Virus record (IMG/VR): IMGVR_UViG_3300032240_001498
Coordinates: 1-64,000 of that record
DNA from: a virus
Taxonomy: Duplodnaviria > Caudoviricetes
Direction: 5' to 3' (one strand)
Length of the DNA stretch: 64,000 bases
A model generated the notes under the pieces. That model was not told the origin of the DNA. It worked only from the letters and a program-made list of their open reading frames with translations, and made no database searches. The translations under genes and the position numbers were made by a program. Shown one piece after another: positions 38,553-54,329 of the stretch. Position 1 is the first letter of the stretch. Every line of letters starts with the position of its first letter.

Positions 38553-41500
38553 TTAGCCCTTTGATACCTGGCCAAAGTTTCCTGATTTAATTGCGCCGGT
38601 GTTAAGCAAGCGAACTGGAATGTAGATAAATTCAACTGCTTTAACTGGTTCTATCGCAATATCAACCCATAATTCAGAACGATCAATACGTGCTGTAGTG
38701 TTATTGCTTGTGTCGCATACAACGATAAAGTCATATAGGGCACGTTGTCCAACCAACTCTAATAAGAAACTTTCAACTGCGTTCTTAACTTCGTTGCGTG
38801 TTAGCTGATCATTTGGTTCGAACAAGTATGGACGAACAAGTAGATCTAACTGACGACGAACATAAGCTACTAAGCGAGCTACGTTGATACGGTCCAGCGC
38901 ACTTGTGCTGTTGCTTCTGCTGTAGTTACCAAAGTTTAAAATACCAGAACCATTTAGTGTGGCAATTGGGTTAATTCTAACTGTTTGTAACGCCATTACA
39001 TCACGTACACCTTGTGGCAATGCTGATGGAACAAAGTCACCTTCTGCATTAACATAACCAACTGATGTAGCATTATCTACACCACCACGGCGAACCCCTG
39101 CTGGAGCAAACCATTGATATGACTTAGAGTCACTGTTGATAAATGTGCGTAGCATCATGTGGCTTGGCGGAACAACAATATAGTTACCTGCATTATCGTT
39201 TGCATAACCACTTGGATAGAACAATGCTGTGTAGTCGTCGCGTGTTACTGCGCCGTCTTCGCCGTTGTCCACTGCTTTTGCAGAGTTATTGCCATATGCC
39301 TGAAGTGCTGTACCAGTTGCCTGTAAGCGGAATGGTGTATCACCGATAACAAATGCTGTCTGTGCGCGGTCTGCGTTTAGTGCAACCATGTTTGAGATTG
39401 CTTCAGGATAGCCTGGGCAAGCCATTAGGTTGAATACCAATGTATCTGTATCTTTCAATGCGTTATTGGTGTCAATTAATGATTTGAATGATTTAACAAC
39501 AAATCCGCGTTGTGCATGACGACCAAATGTGCCTGAACCGTCTGCATTGTTAGGACTTACTGTGACCCAACGTGCTGTGTTGTAGGCTGTTGTGGCATTT
39601 GATCCGTCCATTGGGTCACCTGTACGAATATTAACACCGTTATTGTCGTTAATATTGATATAGTTTGCAATGTATTGTTTTACATTGTAACCAGAACGGC
39701 GTAGATTCCATAGGCGTGTACCACGTGGGTATTGAGCAGGATCTGGAGCATCAGGATCAACGAAATCGCTGGCCAACAACTGTGGAAGTGTTCCTGCTGT
39801 TGTTGCGTAACCGTTTGCGGCCCAACGTGCATCGTGGAATACCCAACCATTTGGACTTGTTTGATCTGTAGGATCTTGTGCTTCCCACTTTAATGTATTA
39901 CCATTGTAAACATAGAAGTCCTTACCGTACATATCCATGTCGCCTGTTTGGATCCAGATGTCTCCGTTCTCTAGTGCAGTACCATCGCTTTGTGTAACAG
40001 GTTGTGTTACTGAAATAATAGGACCTGCAGGATCTGTTGCTGGGAAAGCATTCTTGTAACCAGTCCATTTTGTACCGTTGTGATACATGATGTCAACGGT
40101 ACTGAATACGTTACTGTACCATAATGTACTGTCAGCTGGTCTAGCTGTAGGAGCTGTCTTCGATGATGTAAACACTAAAGGAGCCCAGTTACTTGCTTTG
40201 AATGTGTAACCGTCAACTTCTTTTGTACCTGCGGCATAGAAGTTTGTAGTACCAGTCCATGTGTCAGCAAGAGTGTTGTAGGTGTAAGGAGCGAATCCTG
40301 CGGTAGATAAAATATTACCTGGATCTCTAAATTTAATCTCTCCACCAGCAGAGTGTACTATAGAAACAGTACCGTCTGCATTTAGAACAGCGGAAGTATA
40401 TTCAAACCCACCGGCGTTAATTGCAGTAACTAACGCAGACAATGTTGTACCAACTAGGGTAATTGCTGTTTCGTGCTCTAGCATTGAAGAACTTGTACCG
40501 CTTTCTTTGATTGTTAGAACTGCACCATTAGGTAGTGTAGGTGCAGGTGACAATGAAGTGCTGGTAATTGTTGTAGGAGCAACTGCTGAGCGTCTCCAAA
40601 TACGGAAGTCTGCAAAAGAAGCAAAATTGCTTGATGTAGTAGCAGTACCGTTACCGTGGTTGAAATTACTTTCAACAAATAATGTACCTACAGCGATCTT
40701 TGCACCACCTGATGTTTTATCTAGATTATAATTTGCTGTCTGTGCATCAGGATAAACTTGCGCAGAAATCTGTGTCCAATTTTGTGCAGTAGCATTGTAT
40801 TGTTTTACAATCCAAGTTGCACCTTGATCGGGACTGGTTGTTTTGACGTAGACAGAGCCACTTGGTCTTGCACTAAAATCTGGATATTGTGTATGTGGAC
40901 CAACAAATAGCTGTGGGCCATAATATGCCTTGGCTGAGTAGCCTAATGCAGATAGTGTGCTGTTAGTACCACCAATTGTAACTGTTCCAGGATTAGCATC
41001 AGCATAGATGTTTAGTTTACCTGCTTCGGCTTTAGCACCAATACCACTTGTGTGTAGTGTGCTGTTGATGCTTGCGGCAATAGTTGCAACAGTAGAAGCT
41101 GTGCTTACTGCAACAGTGGTACCGTTAATGATCAACGAGCCAGATGCTGTGGCAAAACTTGGATTAGTTGTAGTACCTGCGACTGTTGGGTAGCTTGTTA
41201 CCCATACTGTTGATTTAAATGTGCTTACGTTTGCGTTTGTAGCAAATGCTGTTTCGCCTGAGCTACCAACTTTTACCCAGTTACCGTCTTGATTCTTGTA
41301 TTGGGTTTCATTTGTGTTGCCGTGGTCGGTACAGATTGCATATGAACCTAATGCACCAAATCCTGGTTGAATTGTTACACCGTCATTGTTGACTGTTGAA
41401 ATTGCAGAATTAGACGAATCAATGATAGTTAAATTTTGTACACTGAATGAGCCTGCATTTGCGTCCCACTCAAACACGCCAAATCTAGTATTTGTAGTGT

Positions 41501-41918
41501 CTAACCAATATGTACCACCTGCTGGTGCGCCAACTGGTGCTGAGCTCTTGCCGACCAATTGACCAAGATCGACATCTGCGCGAGCAACAAATACTCTTGA
41601 GCTTACTCCCAGCACTGAATATGCGGCTTGTAATCCGTACTCGTTACGCTCGCCACCGTTTACTGGGTTGTTGCCTGAATCGACTTCAAAGTATGGTGTA
41701 CCAAATGTATCTGTAAGATCTCTCTGACTTGTGATAGTCCAAACTTGGTTTTTATACTTGCTTGTAGTACCGGCCGCTGTGCCAGTTCCTGAAGAATTTG
41801 GTTTATTTGCGGCAGTAGCGATAAAGATTAAAGGTACGGTCCCTGGGGCCGCTGGAGTATAAAAACTCTCGTTTACTATCTGTACTGATACGCCTGGTGA
41901 ATTTAAATTTTGTGCCAT
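38553..41918 (-). CDS. tail sheath protein (gp18-like) with large insertion
   Basis: LNSPGVSV....ES, NEYGL.AAYS.LG, WFAPAG..RG, DRINVARL; start moved to MAQNL. Confidence 0.93.
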   Translation of the reverse strand: MAQNLNSPGVSVQIVNESFYTPAAPGTVPLIFIATAANKPNSSGTGTAAGTTSKYKNQVWTITSQRDLTDTFGTPYFEVDSGNNPVNGGERNEYGLQAAYSVLGVSSRVFVARADVDLGQLVGKSSAPVGAPAGGTYWLDTTNTRFGVFEWDANAGSFSVQNLTIIDSSNSAISTVNNDGVTIQPGFGALGSYAICTDHGNTNETQYKNQDGNWVKVGSSGETAFATNANVSTFKSTVWVTSYPTVAGTTTNPSFATASGSLIINGTTVAVSTASTVATIAASINSTLHTSGIGAKAEAGKLNIYADANPGTVTIGGTNSTLSALGYSAKAYYGPQLFVGPHTQYPDFSARPSGSVYVKTTSPDQGATWIVKQYNATAQNWTQISAQVYPDAQTANYNLDKTSGGAKIAVGTLFVESNFNHGNGTATTSSNFASFADFRIWRRSAVAPTTITSTSLSPAPTLPNGAVLTIKESGTSSSMLEHETAITLVGTTLSALVTAINAGGFEYTSAVLNADGTVSIVHSAGGEIKFRDPGNILSTAGFAPYTYNTLADTWTGTTNFYAAGTKEVDGYTFKASNWAPLVFTSSKTAPTARPADSTLWYSNVFSTVDIMYHNGTKWTGYKNAFPATDPAGPIISVTQPVTQSDGTALENGDIWIQTGDMDMYGKDFYVYNGNTLKWEAQDPTDQTSPNGWVFHDARWAANGYATTAGTLPQLLASDFVDPDAPDPAQYPRGTRLWNLRRSGYNVKQYIANYININDNNGVNIRTGDPMDGSNATTAYNTARWVTVSPNNADGSGTFGRHAQRGFVVKSFKSLIDTNNALKDTDTLVFNLMACPGYPEAISNMVALNADRAQTAFVIGDTPFRLQATGTALQAYGNNSAKAVDNGEDGAVTRDDYTALFYPSGYANDNAGNYIVVPPSHMMLRTFINSDSKSYQWFAPAGVRRGGVDNATSVGYVNAEGDFVPSALPQGVRDVMALQTVRINPIATLNGSGILNFGNYSRSNSTSALDRINVARLVAYVRRQLDLLVRPYLFEPNDQLTRNEVKNAVESFLLELVGQRALYDFIVVCDTSNNTTARIDRSELWVDIAIEPVKAVEFIYIPVRLLNTGAIKSGNFGQVSKG

Positions 41919-41993
41919 TCTATGCATCTCCCATGTAATGGTTTGTTCATCAGTATTTAGCGGTTGCACCAAATTTTACTTGGTTAAATACCT

Positions 41994-45412: not shown

Positions 45413-46843
45413 ATGGAGTTCTTTTACGATGGACAGATAAGACGTTACCTAACACAGTTTATGCGTCTAATGAGCAACTTTAGTTATAGAGATGCTAAAG
45501 GAAAAATTGTACAGGTTCCTGTTCGCTACGGTGACATGAATAGACAGGTAGCACAACTACAAAAGAAGAACAGTGAAAACACTATTCCAAGTGCTCCATT
45601 CATTGCCTGTTATATCAAAGACCTTAAAGTAGCTAGAACTAGAATACAAGAACCTACACATATCAGCAAGGTACATATCAAAGAGCGAGACTCGTGGTAT
45701 AATCCTGCTACAGGGCAAGATGAGTATCTCAACGTAGAAGGCGAAAACTATACAGTTGAACGATTAATGCCTGTTCCTTATGACTTGACCTTTCAAGCAG
45801 ATATATGGACCACTAACACAGATCAAAAATTGCAGTTGATTGAACAGCTATTGGTATTATTCCGACCTAGTTTAGAATTGCAAACAACTGACAATTATCT
45901 AGATTGGACCAGCCTAAGTACCTTGGAACTTACTGAGATGACTTTTAGCAGTAGACAAATTCCACAAGGAACAGAACAAGATATTGATATTTGCACCATG
46001 CAGTTTGAAACGCCTATATGGTTAACAACACCTGCAAAAGTTAAACAGATGGGCATCATTACAAATATTATTACTTCAATATTTGTTGAACCAGAAGGCA
46101 CACTAAATGCAGGAGGGTATCACAATGGCGGTGAAGTTGATTATTTTGCCGGCAGGCAGGCGGTATCAGTTGAAGGTACAACTCTAGGCAATCTCGGAAT
46201 ACTGGTATTGAACAGCACAGCCAAGCTATTAGCACCTGCAGAAGGTGTTACTACTGACGAAGTTCCTTTTAAATATGGAACAAATATCAGTTGGTTAAGA
46301 ATCTTAGACCTATATCCTGGAAAGTTTAAGGCAGGATTAAGTCAAATTAGGATTAAGAAGCCGTCTGGGTCAGAGATTGTTGCACGTATCAGTCTAGATC
46401 CTAATGACGAGTCTATCATGCACCTTGACATAGACTCAGATACTATCCCGGCAAATAACCAAGTTCCTCCGGGCAGTGGAAAAACATACGTTGATGCTAT
46501 CGTTGATCCTACTACCTTTGATCCTACCAGTCCTGTTGCAGGTATAAGATATCTTATACTAGAGGATGTCAACACAGATCCAAAATTAGACTATGCTATC
46601 GCCAACGATACTGCGGCTAAAGCATGGCGAAATTCAGATGCAACATATCTTGTGGCACACGCAAACGATATCGTAACATGGAACGGTTCACACTGGTCCG
46701 TTGTTTTCGATTCGCGCACAGTTACCGATCTCACTTATATAACTAATACTAGAACAGGCATACAATATGTCTGGGATGGCTCCATGTGGGGCAAGAGTTA
46801 TGAAGGTGAATACCGATCTGGTAATTGGCGATTATTTTTATGA
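45413..46843 (+). CDS. tail terminator/sheath stabiliser (gp15-like)
   Basis: FFYDGQIRRY..QF, VPVRYG, MPVPYDL...DIWT.N.DQK.Q..EQ..VLF.P. Confidence 0.85.
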   Translation: MEFFYDGQIRRYLTQFMRLMSNFSYRDAKGKIVQVPVRYGDMNRQVAQLQKKNSENTIPSAPFIACYIKDLKVARTRIQEPTHISKVHIKERDSWYNPATGQDEYLNVEGENYTVERLMPVPYDLTFQADIWTTNTDQKLQLIEQLLVLFRPSLELQTTDNYLDWTSLSTLELTEMTFSSRQIPQGTEQDIDICTMQFETPIWLTTPAKVKQMGIITNIITSIFVEPEGTLNAGGYHNGGEVDYFAGRQAVSVEGTTLGNLGILVLNSTAKLLAPAEGVTTDEVPFKYGTNISWLRILDLYPGKFKAGLSQIRIKKPSGSEIVARISLDPNDESIMHLDIDSDTIPANNQVPPGSGKTYVDAIVDPTTFDPTSPVAGIRYLILEDVNTDPKLDYAIANDTAAKAWRNSDATYLVAHANDIVTWNGSHWSVVFDSRTVTDLTYITNTRTGIQYVWDGSMWGKSYEGEYRSGNWRLFL

Positions 46844-47268
46844 GTAATATAATTTGTAGTGGTGGAATATTTTTAGCAACAGATACTAAAAGATTTTTAT
46901 TTCTTTTACGCAATCAAGGCAAAACTGCTGGTACATGGGGTATTGTTGGTGGCAAAAATGAGCCGTTAGATGGTACACCTATTGCTACACTAAACAGAGA
47001 AATCACAGAAGAAGTTGGATTCCTGCCAGCGATTGACAAGTATGTTCCACTTGAATTGTTTACCAGCAAAGATGAAGGGTTTTATTACCACACATATTTG
47101 CTGTTAACCAAAGAAGAATTTATCCCCAAACTAAATGAAGAACATGTAGGGTACGCATGGTGTGATATAGAGCACACACCAAAACCATTACACAATGGTG
47201 TGCGTGTTACACTTAATAATAAGATTATTAAAGCTAAGATAGATACCGTAATCGATATCTTAACTTGA
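46840..47268 (+). CDS. NUDIX hydrolase
   Basis: Nudix box GGKNE...TLNREITEEVG; ATGA coupling to gp15. Confidence 0.9.
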   Translation: MSNIICSGGIFLATDTKRFLFLLRNQGKTAGTWGIVGGKNEPLDGTPIATLNREITEEVGFLPAIDKYVPLELFTSKDEGFYYHTYLLLTKEEFIPKLNEEHVGYAWCDIEHTPKPLHNGVRVTLNNKIIKAKIDTVIDILT

Positions 47269-48954
47269 TTTACGGACTACTAACAAGTAGAATCCATTCC
47301 ACCAAGCAGTTAAATCTTCCTGATTGTTTAGAATTACTTTAGAGTAAACAACATCTAATCCTGCGGCTTTAATGCCAGCATCAGTTCCGTCAACAACACC
47401 TTCCCAATTAGCATCATCTACTAGAATAAATGCTTCCTTGGCTAATATCTTAGAAAAGTATTTGATTGCTTTTGCTGTGGTATTAGGATCGTGAGGACCG
47501 TCATAGAAGAAAAAGTCTACCGGCTCAATCTCATCTAGATTAACAGCAAACAAGTCTGATTCATAGACTATGACTTTGTTGTCACCTTTGAATCTTTTCA
47601 CATTAGTGATAAAATCTTCTTTGTTATTTGGTGGCATTTCAAAGATGTCATTCGCTGGTTGGTAAGTGTCTTGCCATGTATCAATGCAGATTACTTCTAG
47701 CTTGTTATCTTTTAGAGCCGCACATGCTGTTGCACCTAGCGCACTACCTACTTCTAAATAGCGTGTAGAATTCTTAGCCAACTTATTGATAAGACTTTCC
47801 ATCTTCCAGCTTGTTAATCCAGGAACATCAATGTTTATCATGTCAATAGCACTATTCAATACTGCATCAATAGCCTGTTGGATTCTTGGACTAACAGGTG
47901 TGCTTTGTTTTTTGCTTACAACTTTATCGCAATACTGACATTCCCAGCAATCAAATTTGCAATTTTTAATTTTTTCTCGCCAAATGTTAATTGGCTTTTC
48001 TGTTAGGTTGCCTTCTTCAATATATTGTTCAAAGCCGTCAAACAGAATTTCGTCGCCTTCAATAAATCCTGCAACAATATCAAGTGTTTCGTGAAAGCGT
48101 TCAACACTTTCTCTACCGTGCATTTTAAACACATCGACATAGTCAAGTAATTCTACCCAATCTTCTCTCCAAGGAGGTAAGTTGGCAGTTTTTAATGGAA
48201 CACTTGGATCTTCATGATCCCATTTAGGACAACTTACACGACTGATACTGTCGTTAAAGTATTGAGGACGACCTGTATCTCTAGTGTTGTTAAATTGATA
48301 ATGTTCGTCCATCATTGGGCAAGCACCTAAACAACCTTCATTAGCTAGGAGACTGATAGTAACATCGCGACCTAGATTTTCTTTGACCCAAGTTTTGGCA
48401 GTTTTTAATCTTGCAAGTGCGTCTCGATCGCGCATTAGATCACGATCAATACATACGTAGTCAAATCCAGCTTTTGCATGAGCAACAAATTCAGCAGGAG
48501 TACGTACATTACGCAGAATAGTATTCTTAACATACAGGTCTGGGTAACGTGCTTGTATCTGTCCAGTGCTCATCCAATGCGTATGTGGAAGTATTACTGA
48601 TCTAATACCTGCATCATACAAGGGCTGGAAATTTTCTAGCCAAATATTGAGATTTTCTTGAGTGGGCGGAACTTCAATGTTATTGAAAGTAGCGCAAAGA
48701 GGGATGCCGGTCTCCCTGTTAAGGTTGAACGCGGCATCTATTACAGAGAATGCGTCTTGCTGAGAAACAAATATGTCTCCCATTGCATCTTGATTAAACG
48801 GAGGAATTCTTGATGTAAAGTATATATCAAAGATATAATCTTTATAGTGCTTACAAAACTCTAAAAAATTAAAGTATTGTGCTTCCGTTAATTTTGGGTT
48901 TATCGGTAAGCTGAATATTTTTTGCGTCTTCGCAGTAGTCTGGGATTCGTTCAT
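47260..48954 (-). CDS. U32-family-like (TIM barrel, Cys-rich) domain fused to class I SAM methyltransferase
   Basis: CIDRDLMRD, NEGCLGAC, DVFKMHGRE, CKFDCWECQYC; then YLEVGSALGAT, IDTW, DFFFYDGPH, LVDDANW. Confidence 0.7.
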   Translation of the reverse strand: MNESQTTAKTQKIFSLPINPKLTEAQYFNFLEFCKHYKDYIFDIYFTSRIPPFNQDAMGDIFVSQQDAFSVIDAAFNLNRETGIPLCATFNNIEVPPTQENLNIWLENFQPLYDAGIRSVILPHTHWMSTGQIQARYPDLYVKNTILRNVRTPAEFVAHAKAGFDYVCIDRDLMRDRDALARLKTAKTWVKENLGRDVTISLLANEGCLGACPMMDEHYQFNNTRDTGRPQYFNDSISRVSCPKWDHEDPSVPLKTANLPPWREDWVELLDYVDVFKMHGRESVERFHETLDIVAGFIEGDEILFDGFEQYIEEGNLTEKPINIWREKIKNCKFDCWECQYCDKVVSKKQSTPVSPRIQQAIDAVLNSAIDMINIDVPGLTSWKMESLINKLAKNSTRYLEVGSALGATACAALKDNKLEVICIDTWQDTYQPANDIFEMPPNNKEDFITNVKRFKGDNKVIVYESDLFAVNLDEIEPVDFFFYDGPHDPNTTAKAIKYFSKILAKEAFILVDDANWEGVVDGTDAGIKAAGLDVVYSKVILNNQEDLTAWWNGFYLLVVRKSS

Positions 48955-49705
48955 CTCTACTCTCTAGTAATTTATCGATAGAACTTTGTACGCCTAACGA
49001 TATATTATGTATCCCTGCTTGGACCTGCCCAGCATACTTTGTGGCCATTTGTAGGGCTTCAATTTGATCACCTTCTGGCATCATGGCAATACTGTCCATG
49101 TTGCCTGATGCAATACGACCAAAACTGATAATATCCATAGCGGCCTGTTTACCCATACGTGCAATCCAGTACTTGCGTTCTTCTTCTGCATTTTCTGCGG
49201 CAAACCATTCAAGGTCCTCTTCAGTTTTTGCATAGAATTTAACAATTTCTAAGAAAGCATTAATTTCTCGCTCTGCTTGGAGCATTTTACGTTTCCAAAT
49301 AGTAATATCGTAATCGTTTTTATCGATATCTACTTGCAACATTTCTTTAGCAATTTCGTCAACAGCTTCGGCTTGGTCACGCACCCACTTTTTACGAAGT
49401 AGTTCTGCTTTGCGAAGGCTTGCTTTAATTTCTTGATAAGCGTGATAGCGTGACTCGAGCTCCATATAGGCTTGTCGAACCTGACGCCATGGAGTAAGTT
49501 GACTGCGGGCTACAAAGTTTTGACATTGATAGGCAGTCATACCCATATTTGAATGTACGGCATAGGTCATGATTTCTTTTTCAAAATCACCCATATCGTA
49601 CCTTTTTAGAAAATCGTCATCGATATGTATTTCAGCTACATCTGAAGCTACGATATTTTCTATGTCTTTGATGTATGTGTTTATTTTTTTAGAATTGGAA
49701 TCCAT
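48869..49705 (-). CDS. coiled-coil hypothetical protein
   Basis: GMTAYQCQNFV..SQLTPWRQVRQAYMELE; long helical heptads. Confidence 0.75.
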   Translation of the reverse strand: MDSNSKKINTYIKDIENIVASDVAEIHIDDDFLKRYDMGDFEKEIMTYAVHSNMGMTAYQCQNFVARSQLTPWRQVRQAYMELESRYHAYQEIKASLRKAELLRKKWVRDQAEAVDEIAKEMLQVDIDKNDYDITIWKRKMLQAEREINAFLEIVKFYAKTEEDLEWFAAENAEEERKYWIARMGKQAAMDIISFGRIASGNMDSIAMMPEGDQIEALQMATKYAGQVQAGIHNISLGVQSSIDKLLESRDERIPDYCEDAKNIQLTDKPKINGSTIL

Positions 49706-50630
49706 GTGGCACCTGTGTTTTTCTTACGAAACTGTCAGGTCCTTCGGTCCATCCTAGCTCTTGTGCTTGCTTTACTGGGACAGCCAATCCGAAGTACCTT
49801 TCGTATTGAATATTTATATCCCACACAGTTTGGGCCGCTTTGAAATCGGCTATGACTCTTTGCTGTGCTACAAGTAGATCAGATAGTTGATCTTCGTAGG
49901 CTTCTGCTTTTTCTAAAATTTTGTTTGCTAATGCTGTTTTATCTTTATTGTGTGAAGTTGCTAGATAATCTAAAAATGGTGTGCGTGACCCATTTTGTCC
50001 TTGATTAGCTAACCATTCGCGAGCTTCATGTTTTTGTATTTCCCAAGATGCTTGCTCTAATTTACCACTTGGAGCCATTGTTAAAAATCTACGTTCAAAC
50101 TCATCTTCAATTGTTTCTTTAGCAAATAAGAACATGAAATCACGAACGTCTTTTACGATATCATCAGTTAGCTCTACCTGACGCTTGAAACCTGCATCCA
50201 AGTTTTGTACTGGAGAAATACCATCAGGTCCATGTGCTCTATCTTCTGTGTTTGCTATCCAAACTTTGGCCGCAGTACGATAGTCTGCAAAAAATTGCTT
50301 GCCATTAATTGCTACACTTTCTGTAATGTATGTAACTTTTGCTTTAGGCCATGTATAGTGTAGTGTATCATGCAGGTGTTTACTCATTGCTACGCATTGT
50401 ACATTAAATAGGCTATATAGTTCTTCACAATATAATGCAGGATCTTGGTGTGTGCTGTCAAACAATGAGTTAGGCAGCACATGATCTCCCACAATCATGA
50501 ATACTGTTGCTGAATTTACAAAAGTGTTGATATCATACGCAGGATCTCCTGAATATAATGCGGGAGGTAAAGCTTCTACGTTTGGATAAACTGATACATC
50601 CCAAAAGTCTACTGAATATTCTTGTGTCAT
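49689..50630 (-). CDS. tail-fibre-assembly-like protein
   Basis: EQASWEIQKHEAREW...TPFLDYLA......LANKILEKAEAY motif of phage fibre chaperones. Confidence 0.6.
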   Translation of the reverse strand: MTQEYSVDFWDVSVYPNVEALPPALYSGDPAYDINTFVNSATVFMIVGDHVLPNSLFDSTHQDPALYCEELYSLFNVQCVAMSKHLHDTLHYTWPKAKVTYITESVAINGKQFFADYRTAAKVWIANTEDRAHGPDGISPVQNLDAGFKRQVELTDDIVKDVRDFMFLFAKETIEDEFERRFLTMAPSGKLEQASWEIQKHEAREWLANQGQNGSRTPFLDYLATSHNKDKTALANKILEKAEAYEDQLSDLLVAQQRVIADFKAAQTVWDINIQYERYFGLAVPVKQAQELGWTEGPDSFVRKTQVPHGFQF

Positions 50631-50631
50631 A

Positions 50632-51753
50632 TTAAACTCCTGGACGTCCTGAACTTGCTACTGTAGCCGCCGCCGAAACTGCGTGACCTGAACTTGCACC
50701 ATAGTGCCCTTTGTTACGTGTTGCCGCTGGCATACGTGTTTGTGCGTTGTTGTTATAAGTTGTCTTATCGCACTTGTTGTTTTGCTGGCCGTCATAGTTA
50801 CCAGTCATATAACCCCAGTCTTGTCCTGCCATCATAACGTCTTCGCCGTATGCTGATATCTGTGAGAAGTAGGCAATAGCTGAACCAGATGTTTCGTTAA
50901 ACTGCACACGACCTTGCTGTACGTTGTTGCCAGTACCGCTGTAATGCCAACCATATTTGGTGCTCAATAACTTCATGAATCCGTCTGGAGTAAACTGTGT
51001 CGGTGATCCAAACCATGAATCGTTTGAGTGATAAATGCCTGATGATCCGCCGCCGATTGAGAACCAAGAAATTTCTTGGCCGCCGCAACCTGAAGTTGGG
51101 CCACCACCGCGATTGTTACCAGTGGTGGTATACATGACTTCTGATGGAAAGTGCATCTTTTCTGTTGAGCTCGGACCTCCGCCTGTGCAATAACCGTATT
51201 GATAGGTTGCGGCACTGGTCGAACCGTGTGTTCTGCGGTTTACTGACATGTCCCAACCGCCAACTGTACCGTAGCCCATAACCGCCTGAGGATCGTCGCC
51301 CACATAACCGAATGAATAAGGACTGAATGTACCGCCTGTTTTACTGCGATTGATACCTGTATACAAGTTAAAACTGTCAGTGTGGCTGTTTGCTCCACCA
51401 AAGCCATTGTTTGTACCCAATGAGTAACCGTTATAGTCTGAGAAGAAACCATCCATGTAGTCTCCGGAATACATTAGCTGTTCTCCGCAGTAGTAGGTAA
51501 TATCTGTTGAATGCCATGTCTTGTTTAAGGCACGCCATGAATTGCCGCCCTTATAACCAGCCGCACTAAATCCGTGTGTTAACACACTACGGTATCTGTA
51601 ACCTGCTTGCGGGTTACCCGATGGGCTACCTGGATAAGTCCAAAATGCTGTAGTTCCGTCAGTTACCAACGTTGCGCCGCGGCAGTATGTGTCCGAACTT
51701 GGTAGCGGATAAATGCCCGGAATAATGTTAGTGTTACCAATGTATAATGCCAT
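50632..51753 (-). CDS. Kelch-like beta-propeller virion/fibre-tip protein
   Basis: Repeated GY..GG/YG blades (GFSAAGYKGG, GYCTGGG, GYMTGNYDG). Confidence 0.6.
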   Translation of the reverse strand: MALYIGNTNIIPGIYPLPSSDTYCRGATLVTDGTTAFWTYPGSPSGNPQAGYRYRSVLTHGFSAAGYKGGNSWRALNKTWHSTDITYYCGEQLMYSGDYMDGFFSDYNGYSLGTNNGFGGANSHTDSFNLYTGINRSKTGGTFSPYSFGYVGDDPQAVMGYGTVGGWDMSVNRRTHGSTSAATYQYGYCTGGGPSSTEKMHFPSEVMYTTTGNNRGGGPTSGCGGQEISWFSIGGGSSGIYHSNDSWFGSPTQFTPDGFMKLLSTKYGWHYSGTGNNVQQGRVQFNETSGSAIAYFSQISAYGEDVMMAGQDWGYMTGNYDGQQNNKCDKTTYNNNAQTRMPAATRNKGHYGASSGHAVSAAATVASSGRPGV

Positions 51754-51778
51754 GTTAGTTTCCTCTTATTACTGTTAT

Positions 51779-54295
51779 TTATTTAAGTAGCTGGGCTACC
51801 AATGCTTTTAACTGTGCAACTTCTTCTTTTAGTTGCGCAATTTCGTCTGAATGTTCGTTGTGTCCTGCAATTACCAAGGGCACTAATTTTTCGTACTGTA
51901 CAGTTAGATAGTTTTCGCCGGATTTGCTCTGGCCGTTTTCGTCTACGTCTAATGCCGCTAATCCCACAGCTTGGGGCTGTACAGCCTGTACTTGTGCCGC
52001 GTTCACACCAACCTGTTCACGAGTAGATTTTTGTCCTAGGCTAAGAGCCAGCTCGTTATTAACGTAGATAAATGTATCAAGTGTTTTTAGTTTGGCGCTG
52101 GCACTGGTTACAGGAGCAATAACTGTTTTTAGTCTAATATCAGATGTATTAGAATAAATGTCACCTGTTACATATAGTACGCCGTTGACCTGTATTGCAC
52201 CAGTACCGTTTGATTGTAGTGTGTTGTTGCCTGAACGATATATGTACCATTCGCCAGTACCGTTACCGCGCAGATATGTACCACTGGCGTAATTGTAAGT
52301 ACCAAAGAATAAGGATCCGCCACTTGTAACGTTAATATCGCCTGATCCGTTTACCTGTAAACATACGCCCGAGCCGTTACCTACAGAGTTGTTGTTTAAA
52401 GTCAATGCACCCGATGCCGCACCAGTGATAGTATGGGTAACGCCTGAGTTGCTGATTGTTAGTTGGTTGCTACCGTTGATAGTTGTGAAGTTGCCCGAGT
52501 AGGCTGTAACGCCAGAACCAATCGGTCCTTGGAATGTTGTTGTAGCAATAACTGTTGGGCAGGATAATGTAGTAGTACCTGGATTATAAGTTAGTGATGC
52601 GCTGTTGACGTTAAGTGTTGTGATCGCACCACTTACTGAGTTTGTAAATGTTGGGTAATAAGTAGCGTTGGTTGTAATGTTTGCAACAGTAACACCAGTC
52701 TGCGCCCATTGGAGTCCAGTACCAGTCGATGTCAGTGCGTAACCACTTGTACCTGCAGATCCACCAATGTATAATGCTCCGCGGAGAGTTAGTCCACTTG
52801 CAATATCAACACCGCCTGCAACTGCAAATGCGCCTGTACCTGCTGTACCGTTGGCCGCAGTAGTTGAGTTAACTGTAAAGTCACCACTGCCGTTGGCAAT
52901 TAATCTAATGTTACCTGCGCCGTCTGAAATAATAATACCGTTAGAAACAATGGTTCCGCCTGCATTACCACCTATGATAACTGCGTTGTTGATTGCGGCA
53001 CCAATACTTGTACCAGCACCGTAACCAATTAGGGTATTACTTGCTCCGCTGACTAACGCATTACCTGCATTATAACCAATCAAGGTATTTTGATAGCCAC
53101 CGGCCATTTGGAAACCAGCTTGATAACCAATTGCAGTATTGTTGTAGAAGCCACCGTTACCTGTACCTAGCGCACGATAACCAATCGCCACGTTGTTCTG
53201 CATGGCTGTATTATTGGCAGTATACATGGCCTGATAACCAATAGCAGTATTGTTACCGCCTGTGGCTGTTTGGGCCAATAACGCTTGATAACCAATTGCA
53301 GTATTACCTGCAGAACTTGTCAGTGCGTTACCTGCATAGTAACCAATCAGCGCATTAGTACCACCAGTTAATAGTGCGGCACCTGCACCTGTACCTACAA
53401 CTAAATTTGTTGCAATACTTGAGTTACCTGTACCAAAACGTACACCGCTGTGGAAAGCATCACTGCCTGTTACAATACCACCGCCTGCTGATATACCACC
53501 ATAGGTTACGATAGCACCAGTACCTGTTGATGCAATACCAGATGCGATAGTGATTGCTGTTGATAGTGGTATGCTTATACCAGTAGCACTAACTGTTAAT
53601 CCGTTTAGTTGTGTTGCAATGGCACCAGCTGATTGACTGGCGCTTGATACTAAAAAGTTTAAATTGCCAGATGTTAATTGAACTTGTGCATTATAGCCTG
53701 TACCGCTTACATAAGTTGTACCAGCGTTATTGTAGCTGTTTAGGCCAATGCCTAACGGATATGTACTTGCGCCAACCTGAATAGCAACAGCTTGCGAATT
53801 TCCTGAATTATAAAAGTAGCCAGCAACGTTTGTAGTTGTGCTAACTGTAATACCATATGTAGATCCTGCACCACCAACACCTAAGTTAGCGTTCATGGCA
53901 AACGAACCGCCGATATTTAAGTTACCCGAAATACCTGCACCACCAAATACCTGTAGACTACCTGTTTGTGTTGTTGTAGATTGTATTGGGCTTGTAGATG
54001 CACCAATGTATGTAACACCATTGTATGGGGCAATGTTAACTGCGCCGGTATCTTGTACAATAAGACTTGGTATACCGCTCTTATCTGTAACGGTATACAA
54101 ATAACCAGCCATACTGTCGATCACACTTTGTAACTGTCCGTTCGTACCTTCCCATGCTTGCGTACCATTATCTAGAACACGCACATACGTAGATGCAGAG
54201 CTGGCCGAAGCGCCGCCAGTAAACCTTATGATCGGCTCGGTTGTGCTTGAACCAATGTTTGGCGTTATTAAAATATTACGATCTGTATATGCCAT
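51779..54295 (-). CDS. tail fibre with C-terminal peptidase S74 intramolecular chaperone
   Basis: SDIRLK...GV.A.QV..V.P.AV...YLTVQYEKLVPL plus coiled coil; NTAIGYQA repeats. Confidence 0.88.
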   Translation of the reverse strand: MAYTDRNILITPNIGSSTTEPIIRFTGGASASSASTYVRVLDNGTQAWEGTNGQLQSVIDSMAGYLYTVTDKSGIPSLIVQDTGAVNIAPYNGVTYIGASTSPIQSTTTQTGSLQVFGGAGISGNLNIGGSFAMNANLGVGGAGSTYGITVSTTTNVAGYFYNSGNSQAVAIQVGASTYPLGIGLNSYNNAGTTYVSGTGYNAQVQLTSGNLNFLVSSASQSAGAIATQLNGLTVSATGISIPLSTAITIASGIASTGTGAIVTYGGISAGGGIVTGSDAFHSGVRFGTGNSSIATNLVVGTGAGAALLTGGTNALIGYYAGNALTSSAGNTAIGYQALLAQTATGGNNTAIGYQAMYTANNTAMQNNVAIGYRALGTGNGGFYNNTAIGYQAGFQMAGGYQNTLIGYNAGNALVSGASNTLIGYGAGTSIGAAINNAVIIGGNAGGTIVSNGIIISDGAGNIRLIANGSGDFTVNSTTAANGTAGTGAFAVAGGVDIASGLTLRGALYIGGSAGTSGYALTSTGTGLQWAQTGVTVANITTNATYYPTFTNSVSGAITTLNVNSASLTYNPGTTTLSCPTVIATTTFQGPIGSGVTAYSGNFTTINGSNQLTISNSGVTHTITGAASGALTLNNNSVGNGSGVCLQVNGSGDINVTSGGSLFFGTYNYASGTYLRGNGTGEWYIYRSGNNTLQSNGTGAIQVNGVLYVTGDIYSNTSDIRLKTVIAPVTSASAKLKTLDTFIYVNNELALSLGQKSTREQVGVNAAQVQAVQPQAVGLAALDVDENGQSKSGENYLTVQYEKLVPLVIAGHNEHSDEIAQLKEEVAQLKALVAQLLK

Positions 54296-54329
54296 CTCTT
54301 ATTCCATTGTTCCTGTATTTATTGGTCTA

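Follow-up and report, generated by a model that had tools for sequence, protein, structure and literature searches.

A U32-like barrel fused to an O-methyltransferase in a four-gene cassette of a marine jumbo phage: a possible fibre-tip tailoring module

Every member of the U32 family with a genetically defined role has been tied to O2-independent hydroxylation, and most of the twelve subfamilies are uncharacterized (PMC10990095). In tRNA, TrhP (YegQ; TrhP1/TrhP2 are YrrN/YrrO) and TrmR (YrrM) act in sequence on U34, with hydroxylation to 5-hydroxyuridine (ho5U) followed by O-methylation to 5-methoxyuridine (mo5U) (PMC13602947). UbiU and UbiV hydroxylate within the ubiquinone pathway; they bind iron-sulfur (Fe-S) clusters and need partners (the UbiU-UbiV heterodimer, with UbiT as an accessory), and the hydroxyls are later O-methylated (PMC6747719, PMC10990095). 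Prephenate is the demonstrated oxygen donor for UbiU/V (PMC10990095, PMC13602947). Here we describe a phage cassette of four genes, P0004 to P0001, the last of which fuses a U32-like barrel to a methyltransferase. The cassette lies in a stretch of 64,000 nucleotides (positions 1 to 64,000, called the window below) of the IMG/VR virus record IMGVR_UViG_3300032240_001498, a 200.6-kb (200,604-bp) sequence with a CheckV completeness of 55% from an uncultured marine jumbo phage that is much larger than the cyanophage relatives of the cassette. It is very probable, in our view, that the N-terminal domain of P0001 is a distinct clade of the U32 superfamily and that the gene set forms one module. Our best overall explanation, which we put forward tentatively, is that the cassette is expressed late and tailors the fibre tip by hydroxylation followed by O-methylation.

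Like the pair TrhP and TrmR, P0001 brings together a Cys-rich barrel of the U32 fold and a COMT-like, metal-dependent S-adenosylmethionine (SAM) O-methyltransferase, and it may share the logic of hydroxylation followed by O-methylation. Unlike that pair, it fuses both activities in one chain, fails the Pfam family PF01136, has a different Cys motif, and is locked to tip and helper genes. With UbiU-UbiV it has in common a U32 barrel with conserved cysteines after strand 7, but its cysteines are arranged as CX3C...C plus CX3CX2CX2C, its companions P0002 and P0003 resemble neither UbiV nor UbiT, and its setting is a virion module. The structures closest to the P0001 barrel are the uncharacterized archaeal U32 proteins of the MJ1657/Mk0906 type; these are only 10-15% identical to it and lack the methyltransferase fusion, and they give no functional transfer. 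Orthologous cassettes occupy the same kind of position behind fibre genes in cultured cyanophages (clusters T4-GC 351-354; PSSM4_032-035, Syn19, Syn33, P-HM2, S-RIM2, S-RIM12, S-BM1), with 29-55% identity to the window cassette. The Ralstonia phages RP31/RP12 and a member of the Leptospirales also have P0002-like and U32-like genes in one operon, but with a stand-alone barrel, unlike the P0001 fusion.

The motifs that a preliminary description of the window had quoted for P0001 are all present (IDRDL, residues 169-173; NEGCLGAC, 205-212; FKMHGRE, 276-282; CKFDCWECQYC, 332-342). Pfam, NCBIfam and PDB sequence searches with the single sequence and with alignments gave no match for the N-terminal domain. 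A fold search with full-length P0001 was dominated by methyltransferases and generic TIM barrels, so the N-terminal domain was refolded alone. A profile-free HMMER scan of 1.84 billion representatives yielded 271 barrel relatives, many of them stand-alone proteins of 340-460 amino acids (aa), and a 61-sequence alignment (A2) was used for an AlphaFold2 model. The model (pLDDT 93, pTM 0.91) shows a barrel of eight strands that continues into a helical extension at its C-terminus, as expected if the earlier assignment to a U32-type barrel was correct. Among 48,161 solved chains the U32 protein Mk0906 (5d88), the only solved U32 barrel, ranked first (Z 17.0, root-mean-square deviation 3.1 A, 227 of 247 residues aligned), and the remaining TIM barrels reached Z values of at most 12.2 in structural alignment with VIA-align. 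Foldseek against the PDB could not separate U32 from MTHFR by E-value; VIA-align did. The best match among Swiss-Prot models was MJ1657 (E 2.9e-11, TM 0.69/0.72), in an alignment over residues 13-348 that takes in the helical C-terminal part, and next came four TrhP entries, TrhP2, TrhP1, PrtC, MJ0090 and RlhA; U32 proteins filled 10 of the 15 top rows. Many U32 proteins were also found among the fold neighbours in AFDB clusters and the ESM Atlas, and one viral cluster of near-identical fold (TM 0.91) carries PF01136 on 20% of its members.

Profile comparison with hhalign matched the family to 34 canonical U32 sequences (four from E. coli and 30 from Spirochaetota genomes) with 81% probability and E 1.2e-5 in local mode, and with 92.9% and E 5e-8 in global mode; this supersedes an earlier comparison with the four E. 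coli proteins only, which gave 53%. The alignment pairs VDVFKMHGRE of the phage family with the 'KIEGR' box of U32 (K277-x-x-G280-R281). Seven Spirochaetota proteins bridge the two groups, matching both the phage-family hidden Markov model (HMM; 1e-15 to 1e-27) and the canonical U32 HMM (1e-8 to 2e-5), and one of them scores 21.4 bits on PF01136 against a cut-off of 22.4. The genomic contexts of the cellular bridging homologues (cytochrome c7, S8 peptidase/Calx-beta) were uninformative. Profile-level support for homology to canonical U32 is moderate, and we accept the P0001 barrel as a member of the superfamily because fold, profile comparison and bridging proteins agree.

The cysteine pattern of the barrel is C208-X3-C212-X29-C242 plus C332-X3-C-X2-C-X2-C342. 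All seven cysteines (208, 212, 242, 332, 336, 339, 342) are invariant in 40 full-length homologues, the residues of the first putative site are invariant or at least 90% conserved, and Cys332, Cys336, Cys339 and Cys342 are the only invariant columns of the 61-sequence alignment. The spacing of the second putative site reads as a reversed ferredoxin type. The canonical [4Fe-4S] motif of U32 is CX6CX15CX3/4C (PMC6747719), and the preliminary description was right that the P0001 spacing differs from that of UbiU and RlhA; a different pattern is conserved across the U32-related clade. Bridging bacterial homologues keep both the C-x3-C-P...H pattern and the C-terminal four-Cys box, and for this reason we regard the alternative pattern as a feature of the clade and not as decay. 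The seven cysteines could hold two clusters.

This pattern also bears on the possibility that the barrel is not a hydroxylase at all. It could perform other metal chemistry (reductive or radical-type, with two clusters), or serve as a fibre protease or assembly factor, with the methyltransferase acting independently. A seven-Cys arrangement unlike the canonical four-Cys motif, which could hold two clusters, one with an open site, would suit such a role, as would the failure of the P0001 clade on PF01136, the first naming of the U32 family for the PrtC collagenase, and the loss of Cys208, Cys212 and Cys242, but not of the C-terminal Cys box, in the lineage of the homologue P0250. We know of no protease catalytic residues in U32 proteins, however, and the type of O-methyltransferase fused to the barrel needs a hydroxyl near a second metal ligand. 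The link of all U32 proteins of genetically defined role to O2-independent hydroxylation (PMC10990095) likewise argues for a hydroxylase, and we judge the alternative to be rather unlikely. P0250 itself (506 aa, L018:6001-7521) lies between UvsW and an Sm-like gene in a T4-like lineage in which both the barrel and the C-terminal Cys box are retained. P0250 has Y/S/T in place of Cys208/Cys212/Cys242 as well as long insertions, and may be a non-catalytic or re-purposed paralogue.

The C-terminal part of P0001 is a class I methyltransferase, so the fusion proposed in the preliminary description stands. PF13578 (Methyltransf_24) matches residues 400-514 with E 5.4e-12 (47 bits, cut-off 26.3), and does so in 40 of 40 homologues. 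Its only significant PDB sequence match was TrmR/YrrM (5zw3, E 0.0021), and fold matches were 3tfw, Rv0187 (6jcl), COMT (8c9s), TrmR (5zw3), 3ntv and 7cvu. Invariant residues are E401, G403, G407, D485, H488, D513, D514 and N516, among which E401, G403 and G407 make up SAM motif I (E/D-x-G-x-x-x-G) and D485, D513 and D514 an acidic triad. The HMM alignment places D485 opposite the D of TrmR 'FIDAAK' and D513-D514 opposite the metal-binding 'DN' of TrmR, suggesting that the triad binds a metal. The hydroxyl that COMT-type enzymes methylate has a second metal-binding oxygen next to it; catechols, ho5U and some sugars are examples. Because these enzymes need a hydroxyl next to a second metal ligand, a partner of this type fits a newly made hydroxyl.

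Nucleic acid is one place where such a hydroxyl could arise. P0001 could be a one-protein TrhP plus TrmR (or RlhA plus a methylase), placed in the fibre region incidentally, that makes 5-hydroxy and then 5-methoxy pyrimidines in host or phage tRNA or rRNA, or in phage DNA. The closest characterized U32 folds after MJ1657 are indeed the tRNA hydroxylases TrhP and TrhP1/P2, and RlhA; the sole significant PDB sequence match of the methyltransferase is an ho5U methyltransferase; JGI names some members of the family 'YrrM' and one 'YrrM / PrtC'; yrrM, yrrN and yrrO are neighbours in Bacillus; and the gene next to the cyanophage cassettes is denV, with DNA methylases nearby. The principal argument to the contrary is the strict co-occurrence of the enzyme with three non-nucleic-acid genes, seen again in a bacterial operon headed by a surface-type Laminin_G_3 protein (see below); an enzyme for tRNA or DNA should have no use for such partners. 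ARAGORN found no tRNA or tmRNA gene in the whole 200,604-bp record, and no RNA-binding domain was detected. The TrhP-type Peptidase_U32_C domain (PF16325) matched neither P0001 nor 40 homologues, whose C-terminus is the methyltransferase instead, and a membrane protein replaces the methyltransferase in RP31 and the Leptospirales. A nucleic-acid target therefore seems improbable to us.

The four cassette genes are all on the minus strand (Table 1) and are coupled with the spacing described earlier. P0004 and P0003 are 1 nt apart (50631), P0003 and P0002 overlap by 17 nt (49689-49705), and P0002 and P0001 overlap by 86 nt (48869-48954). The actual use of the last overlap is uncertain; conservation of P0001 begins near residue 12, and the N-terminus is about 15 residues shorter in some homologues. 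The cassette lies directly downstream of a fibre gene, as had been proposed, since P0005 carries Peptidase_S74 (PF13884, residues 718-777, E 6.7e-7) and matches the tail-fibre PHROGs 5481, 14572 and 4563. Each cassette gene has hundreds to thousands of homologues and a PHROG family of its own, with E-values of 6e-63 (1417), 9e-33 (1604), 6e-65 (1409) and 7e-165 (1458), and these are thus real genes rather than chance open reading frames (ORFs).

Among 50,697 phage records the U32-like domain was found in 126, from cyanophages and three Ralstonia phages. P0002 occurred in 128, in the same taxa plus two weak matches, and P0004 in 111, all of them cyanophages. At least 589 IMG/VR stretches encode a relative, and 1875 protein clusters (90% identity) matched among the 8000 candidates scored. 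We fetched 80 IMG/VR loci, all 80 of which contain the fusion; where at least 900 nt of upstream sequence was available, P0002 was present in 69 of 69 loci and P0004 in 68 of 69, and with an iterated profile P0003 was recovered from 70 of the 80, as well as from the Leptospirales operon. The four genes hence co-occur across phages, as the preliminary description had expected, and beyond phages as well. The order in most relatives is tip, P0002, P0003, enzyme, and in the clade of the window P0003 precedes P0002. In the S-ShM2/S-RIM14/S-SSM2 group the enzyme gene lies about 6 kb from P0003-like and P0002-like genes (GU071096.1, 34399-35574 and 41396-42409), and tblastn found no member of the P0004 family, an arrangement which indicates that the cassette can be split or partly lost. 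The equivalents in cultured cyanomyoviruses, clusters T4-GC 351-354, are all hypothetical, with 351 called 'sericin-like'; the cluster numbers are annotated in P-SSM4 and S-BM1 and tabulated in the supplement of PMC3037559.

The three companions of the enzyme are less readily assigned. P0004 is rich in G, S, T and Y (16/11/10/8%), and this composition, together with its occurrence as the C-terminal domain of a Leptospirales protein, fits a putative fibre-tip or adhesin domain. Its earlier label of beta-propeller is retained as a lead only: feature neighbours in the ESM Atlas (0.91-0.92) carry Kelch on 22% and Beta-prop_PLL on 30% of members, but a profile self-comparison found no internal repeat (best E 0.21), and Pfam and NCBIfam gave no match. 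P0003 is conserved mainly in its C-terminal half (about residues 166-313). It was called a fibre chaperone, which is likewise a lead: there was no Pfam match at E 1 and none in NCBIfam, and the sub-threshold Atlas leads (HI1402_helical, XkdW and Caudo_TAP_N, 0.76-0.77) are weak ones that point to families adjoining tail fibres. The Leptospirales P0003 homologue has a 'weak' precomputed match to PF27318. P0002 has no match in Pfam, NCBIfam or PDB sequence searches, and apart from the P0003 leads the ESM Atlas returned only viral hypothetical clusters for both proteins. The term coiled coil, used in the preliminary description, does P0002 too little justice: 40 of its positions are invariant in 35 homologues, and it is the cassette gene most tightly tied to the barrel. 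Given this high conservation and its strict co-occurrence with the enzyme, it looks like a specific partner of the U32-like protein. A role for P0002 as prephenate supplier (chorismate-mutase-like) was considered and found no supporting match, and the N-terminal extension of the 579-aa homologue P0143, considered as a fused P0002, shows no similarity to it.

A tight operon with all four cassette parts occurs on a 6.4-Mb contig (CBDEUV010000002.1) of a Leptospirales metagenome-assembled genome (G001; L063:12050-19900, also L015 and L020). Its lead gene encodes a 1523-aa DUF6519/DUF2341/Laminin_G_3 protein, residues 1221-1483 of which match the P0004 family HMM in two collinear segments (E 2.8e-9). 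This Laminin_G_3/tip protein is followed by P0002-like (phrog_1409, 9e-28), P0003-like (phrog_2618, 3e-18), U32-like and DUF401-like genes, so that the P0002-like gene is one gene, the P0003-like one, away from the enzyme gene. The upstream flanking genes tested are ordinary cellular genes and not prophage, the precomputed families downstream are also cellular, and the flanks include cellular signalling genes (extracytoplasmic function sigma factor, SPase II, cyclases). Thirteen of 301 Spirochaetota genomes matched the profile; only the Leptospirales genome did so at phage-family strength (E 3e-110), the other 12 giving E 1e-11 to 1e-25, and the bacterial copy is therefore sporadic. On this distribution the operon appears to be a module acquired by transfer that functions in the absence of a virion.

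In the Ralstonia jumbo phage RP31, ORF137-ORF135 (L006:7371-10056) encode P0002-like, stand-alone U32-like and DUF401/CitMHS-like proteins in a row. These genes adjoin a virion structural gene, and the P0002-like gene is directly next to the enzyme gene. The DUF401/CitMHS-like product is an integral membrane protein (phrog_14035) encoded directly after the U32-like gene, and the pairing recurs in the Leptospirales. The constant set is a tip-like domain, two helpers and the barrel. The remaining activity varies: it is a methyltransferase in the cyanophages and a membrane protein in the other lineages, and the more distant relatives have radical SAM genes as neighbours or fusion partners.

More distant homologues have other neighbours. 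P0191, a U32-like protein of 26% identity (L017:2214-13035), has four radical SAM genes and a split transketolase nearby. Its cluster also contains a polysaccharide deacetylase-like gene, a GT2 glycosyltransferase and sugar epimerases/dehydratases, and the 109-kb contig encodes in addition a volactin-like protein and DHFR. Another distant homologue abuts a radical SAM gene, and fusions of the fold to radical SAM exist. The 427-aa distant homologue P0208, on a marine phage contig (L008:2705-6804), follows a tail-fibre-like protein (phrog_863), a Trp_halogenase and a small phrog_1787 protein; judged by its gene content, the locus is another fibre-plus-tailoring-enzyme arrangement.

These neighbourhoods raise the question of a small molecule or glycan as the substrate. 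The enzyme could hydroxylate and methylate a metabolite, either soluble or lipid-linked (quinone-like aromatic, sugar or secondary metabolite). The tip protein would bind the product, carry it or be glycosylated with it, and in other lineages the DUF401-like permease would transport it through the membrane. The replacement of the methyltransferase by a DUF401/CitMHS-like transporter in RP31 and the Leptospirales is the chief argument for this explanation. The P0191 cluster of sugar and radical SAM genes, the radical SAM neighbour and the radical SAM fusions also agree with it, as does the methylation of catechols and sugars by COMT/CCoAOMT/TylF-type enzymes, one family member matching TylF with E 0.013. 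The substrate of UbiU/V, moreover, is an aromatic lipid of small size (PMC6747719). However, the four genes of the cassette, in the window as in its cyanophage relatives, include none for a glycosyltransferase, a sugar-nucleotide enzyme or a carrier protein. The tight four-way linkage to a tip-like protein would still have to be explained, and the function of the distant homologues may have diverged. We consider this explanation unlikely.

Late-promoter-like boxes stand ahead of P0005, P0004 and P0002 (Table 1). In the window ATAAATA is under-represented (9 found, 16.7 expected), but eight of the nine copies are on the minus strand, mostly just upstream of minus-strand ORF starts (15042, 20203, 29349, 31649, 34655, 51776 and 54316). 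This strand bias and placement are consistent with promoters of the T4 late type. Ahead of P0004 the AATAAATA box is followed by a good ribosome-binding site, AAGAGGAAA. Scans for sigma-70 promoters and terminators gave results at background level.

According to the explanation that we prefer, the four genes would form one late-expressed module for making a fibre or adhesin tip with tailored chemistry, in which P0004 would be the tip domain, P0003 and P0002 dedicated helpers and P0001 the tailoring enzyme. The module would hold a target on which the barrel would introduce a hydroxyl, at an sp2 (aromatic-type) carbon or at another C-H, and the methyltransferase would next convert this hydroxyl into a methoxy group. 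By analogy with the systems above, chemistry of the 'hydroxylate then O-methylate' kind has, in our estimate, about an even chance of being correct. The context would favour the tip protein as target, for instance at an aromatic side chain, or else an adduct on that protein; we regard this assignment as possible but somewhat doubtful.

Several points weigh against this explanation. PF01136 matched neither P0001 nor 40 homologues even at E 10 and had no match in the phage record, and the canonical CX6CX15CX3/4C motif does not occur in the P0001 family; the catalytic analogy therefore spans a large distance. COMT-type enzymes also methylate sugars and small catechols. Gene linkage cannot separate an enzyme that modifies the tip from one that is needed during the making of the tip. 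The DUF401-like protein in the place of the methyltransferase in RP31 and the Leptospirales fits a small-molecule substrate better than a protein one, and the cluster around P0191 is one of sugar biosynthesis that also includes radical SAM enzymes. Even RlhA and TrhP have yet to be shown to hydroxylate directly in vitro (PMC10990095). Finally, we found no virion proteomics for a cassette-bearing phage. The cyanophages so studied, S-SM1, S-PM2 and Syn9 (PMC3037559), are apparently cassette-free.

The genes around the cassette in the window belong to a T4-like tail module. P0001 meets the NUDIX hydrolase gene tail to tail, the two genes sharing their last 9 nt (47260-47268). The Laminin_G_3 domain of the 217-aa protein encoded upstream of the S74 fibre is of the type that heads the Leptospirales operon.

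Table 1. Coordinates in the window of the cassette, its domains and sites, promoter-like boxes and neighbouring genes
Feature	Position	Strand	Remarks
P0001, 564 aa	47260-48954	minus	phrog_1458 / T4-GC 354; U32-like barrel and methyltransferase fusion
P0001 residues ~11-350	47905-48924	minus	divergent U32-superfamily (beta/alpha)8 barrel with helical C-terminal extension
Cys208-x3-Cys212-Pro...Glu217-His218...Cys242	48229-48333	minus	putative metal/Fe-S site 1, after barrel strand 7
Cys332-x3-Cys336-x2-Cys339-x2-Cys342	47929-47961	minus	putative Fe-S (or Zn) site 2
P0001 residues ~375-564	47263-47832	minus	class I SAM-dependent, COMT/CCoAOMT/TrmR-like (cation-dependent) O-methyltransferase
P0002, 278 aa	48869-49705	minus	phrog_1409 / T4-GC 353
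P0003, 313 aa	49689-50630	minus	phrog_1604 / T4-GC 352
P0004, 373 aa	50632-51753	minus	phrog_1417 / T4-GC 351 ('sericin-like')
TATAAATA	49811-49818	minus	perfect T4 late-promoter consensus within P0003 (3' part); the P0002 ATG follows after 106 nt
AATAAATA	51776-51783	minus	T4-type late-promoter-like box, 23 nt before the P0004 ATG
AATAAATA	54316-54323		late-promoter-like box before P0005
P0005, 838-aa tail fibre	51779-54295	minus	upstream of the cassette; C-terminal Peptidase_S74 intramolecular chaperone domain
Laminin_G_3 (concanavalin-like lectin) protein, 217 aa	54330-54983		between the giant ORF and the S74 fibre
Open frame of >2890 aa	54985-63999
NUDIX hydrolase gene	46825-47268	plus	next after gp15
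gp15 tail sheath stabilizer	45413-46843		T4-like tail module
Tail sheath	38553-41972		T4-like tail module

The fusion has been carried as a 'hypothetical protein' in cultured cyanophages since the P-SSM4 genome, and our literature search found no study of the P0001 family, in line with the earlier remark that no characterized example was known. What is added here is the gap in Z between U32 and other TIM barrels, the bridging proteins, the clade-wide Cys pattern, the co-occurrence counts and the four-part Leptospirales operon. The cassette is testable, given the cultured carriers S-RIM2, Syn19, Syn33, P-SSM4 and P-HM2, and the fusion is very common in marine viral data. The Leptospirales operon implies that the module may also work outside the virion. 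A bolder and improbable possibility is that the module is the first U32-type, O2-independent (prephenate-linked) Fe-S hydroxylase to act on a protein, namely on an aromatic side chain of the Gly/Ser/Tyr-rich tip, with P0002 and P0003 presenting the substrate. If so, a hydroxy (catechol-like) form would be made where the methyltransferase is absent and a methoxy form in the cyanophages, and phages, as well as at least one bacterium, would adjust an adhesin chemically by means of an enzyme class whose action has so far been known on RNA bases and quinones only. With RNA or DNA as the target, the cassette would represent a new phage nucleic-acid modification. If the target is the host-binding tip, the cassette would provide phages with a new route to alter adsorption and the U32 family with a new class of substrate.

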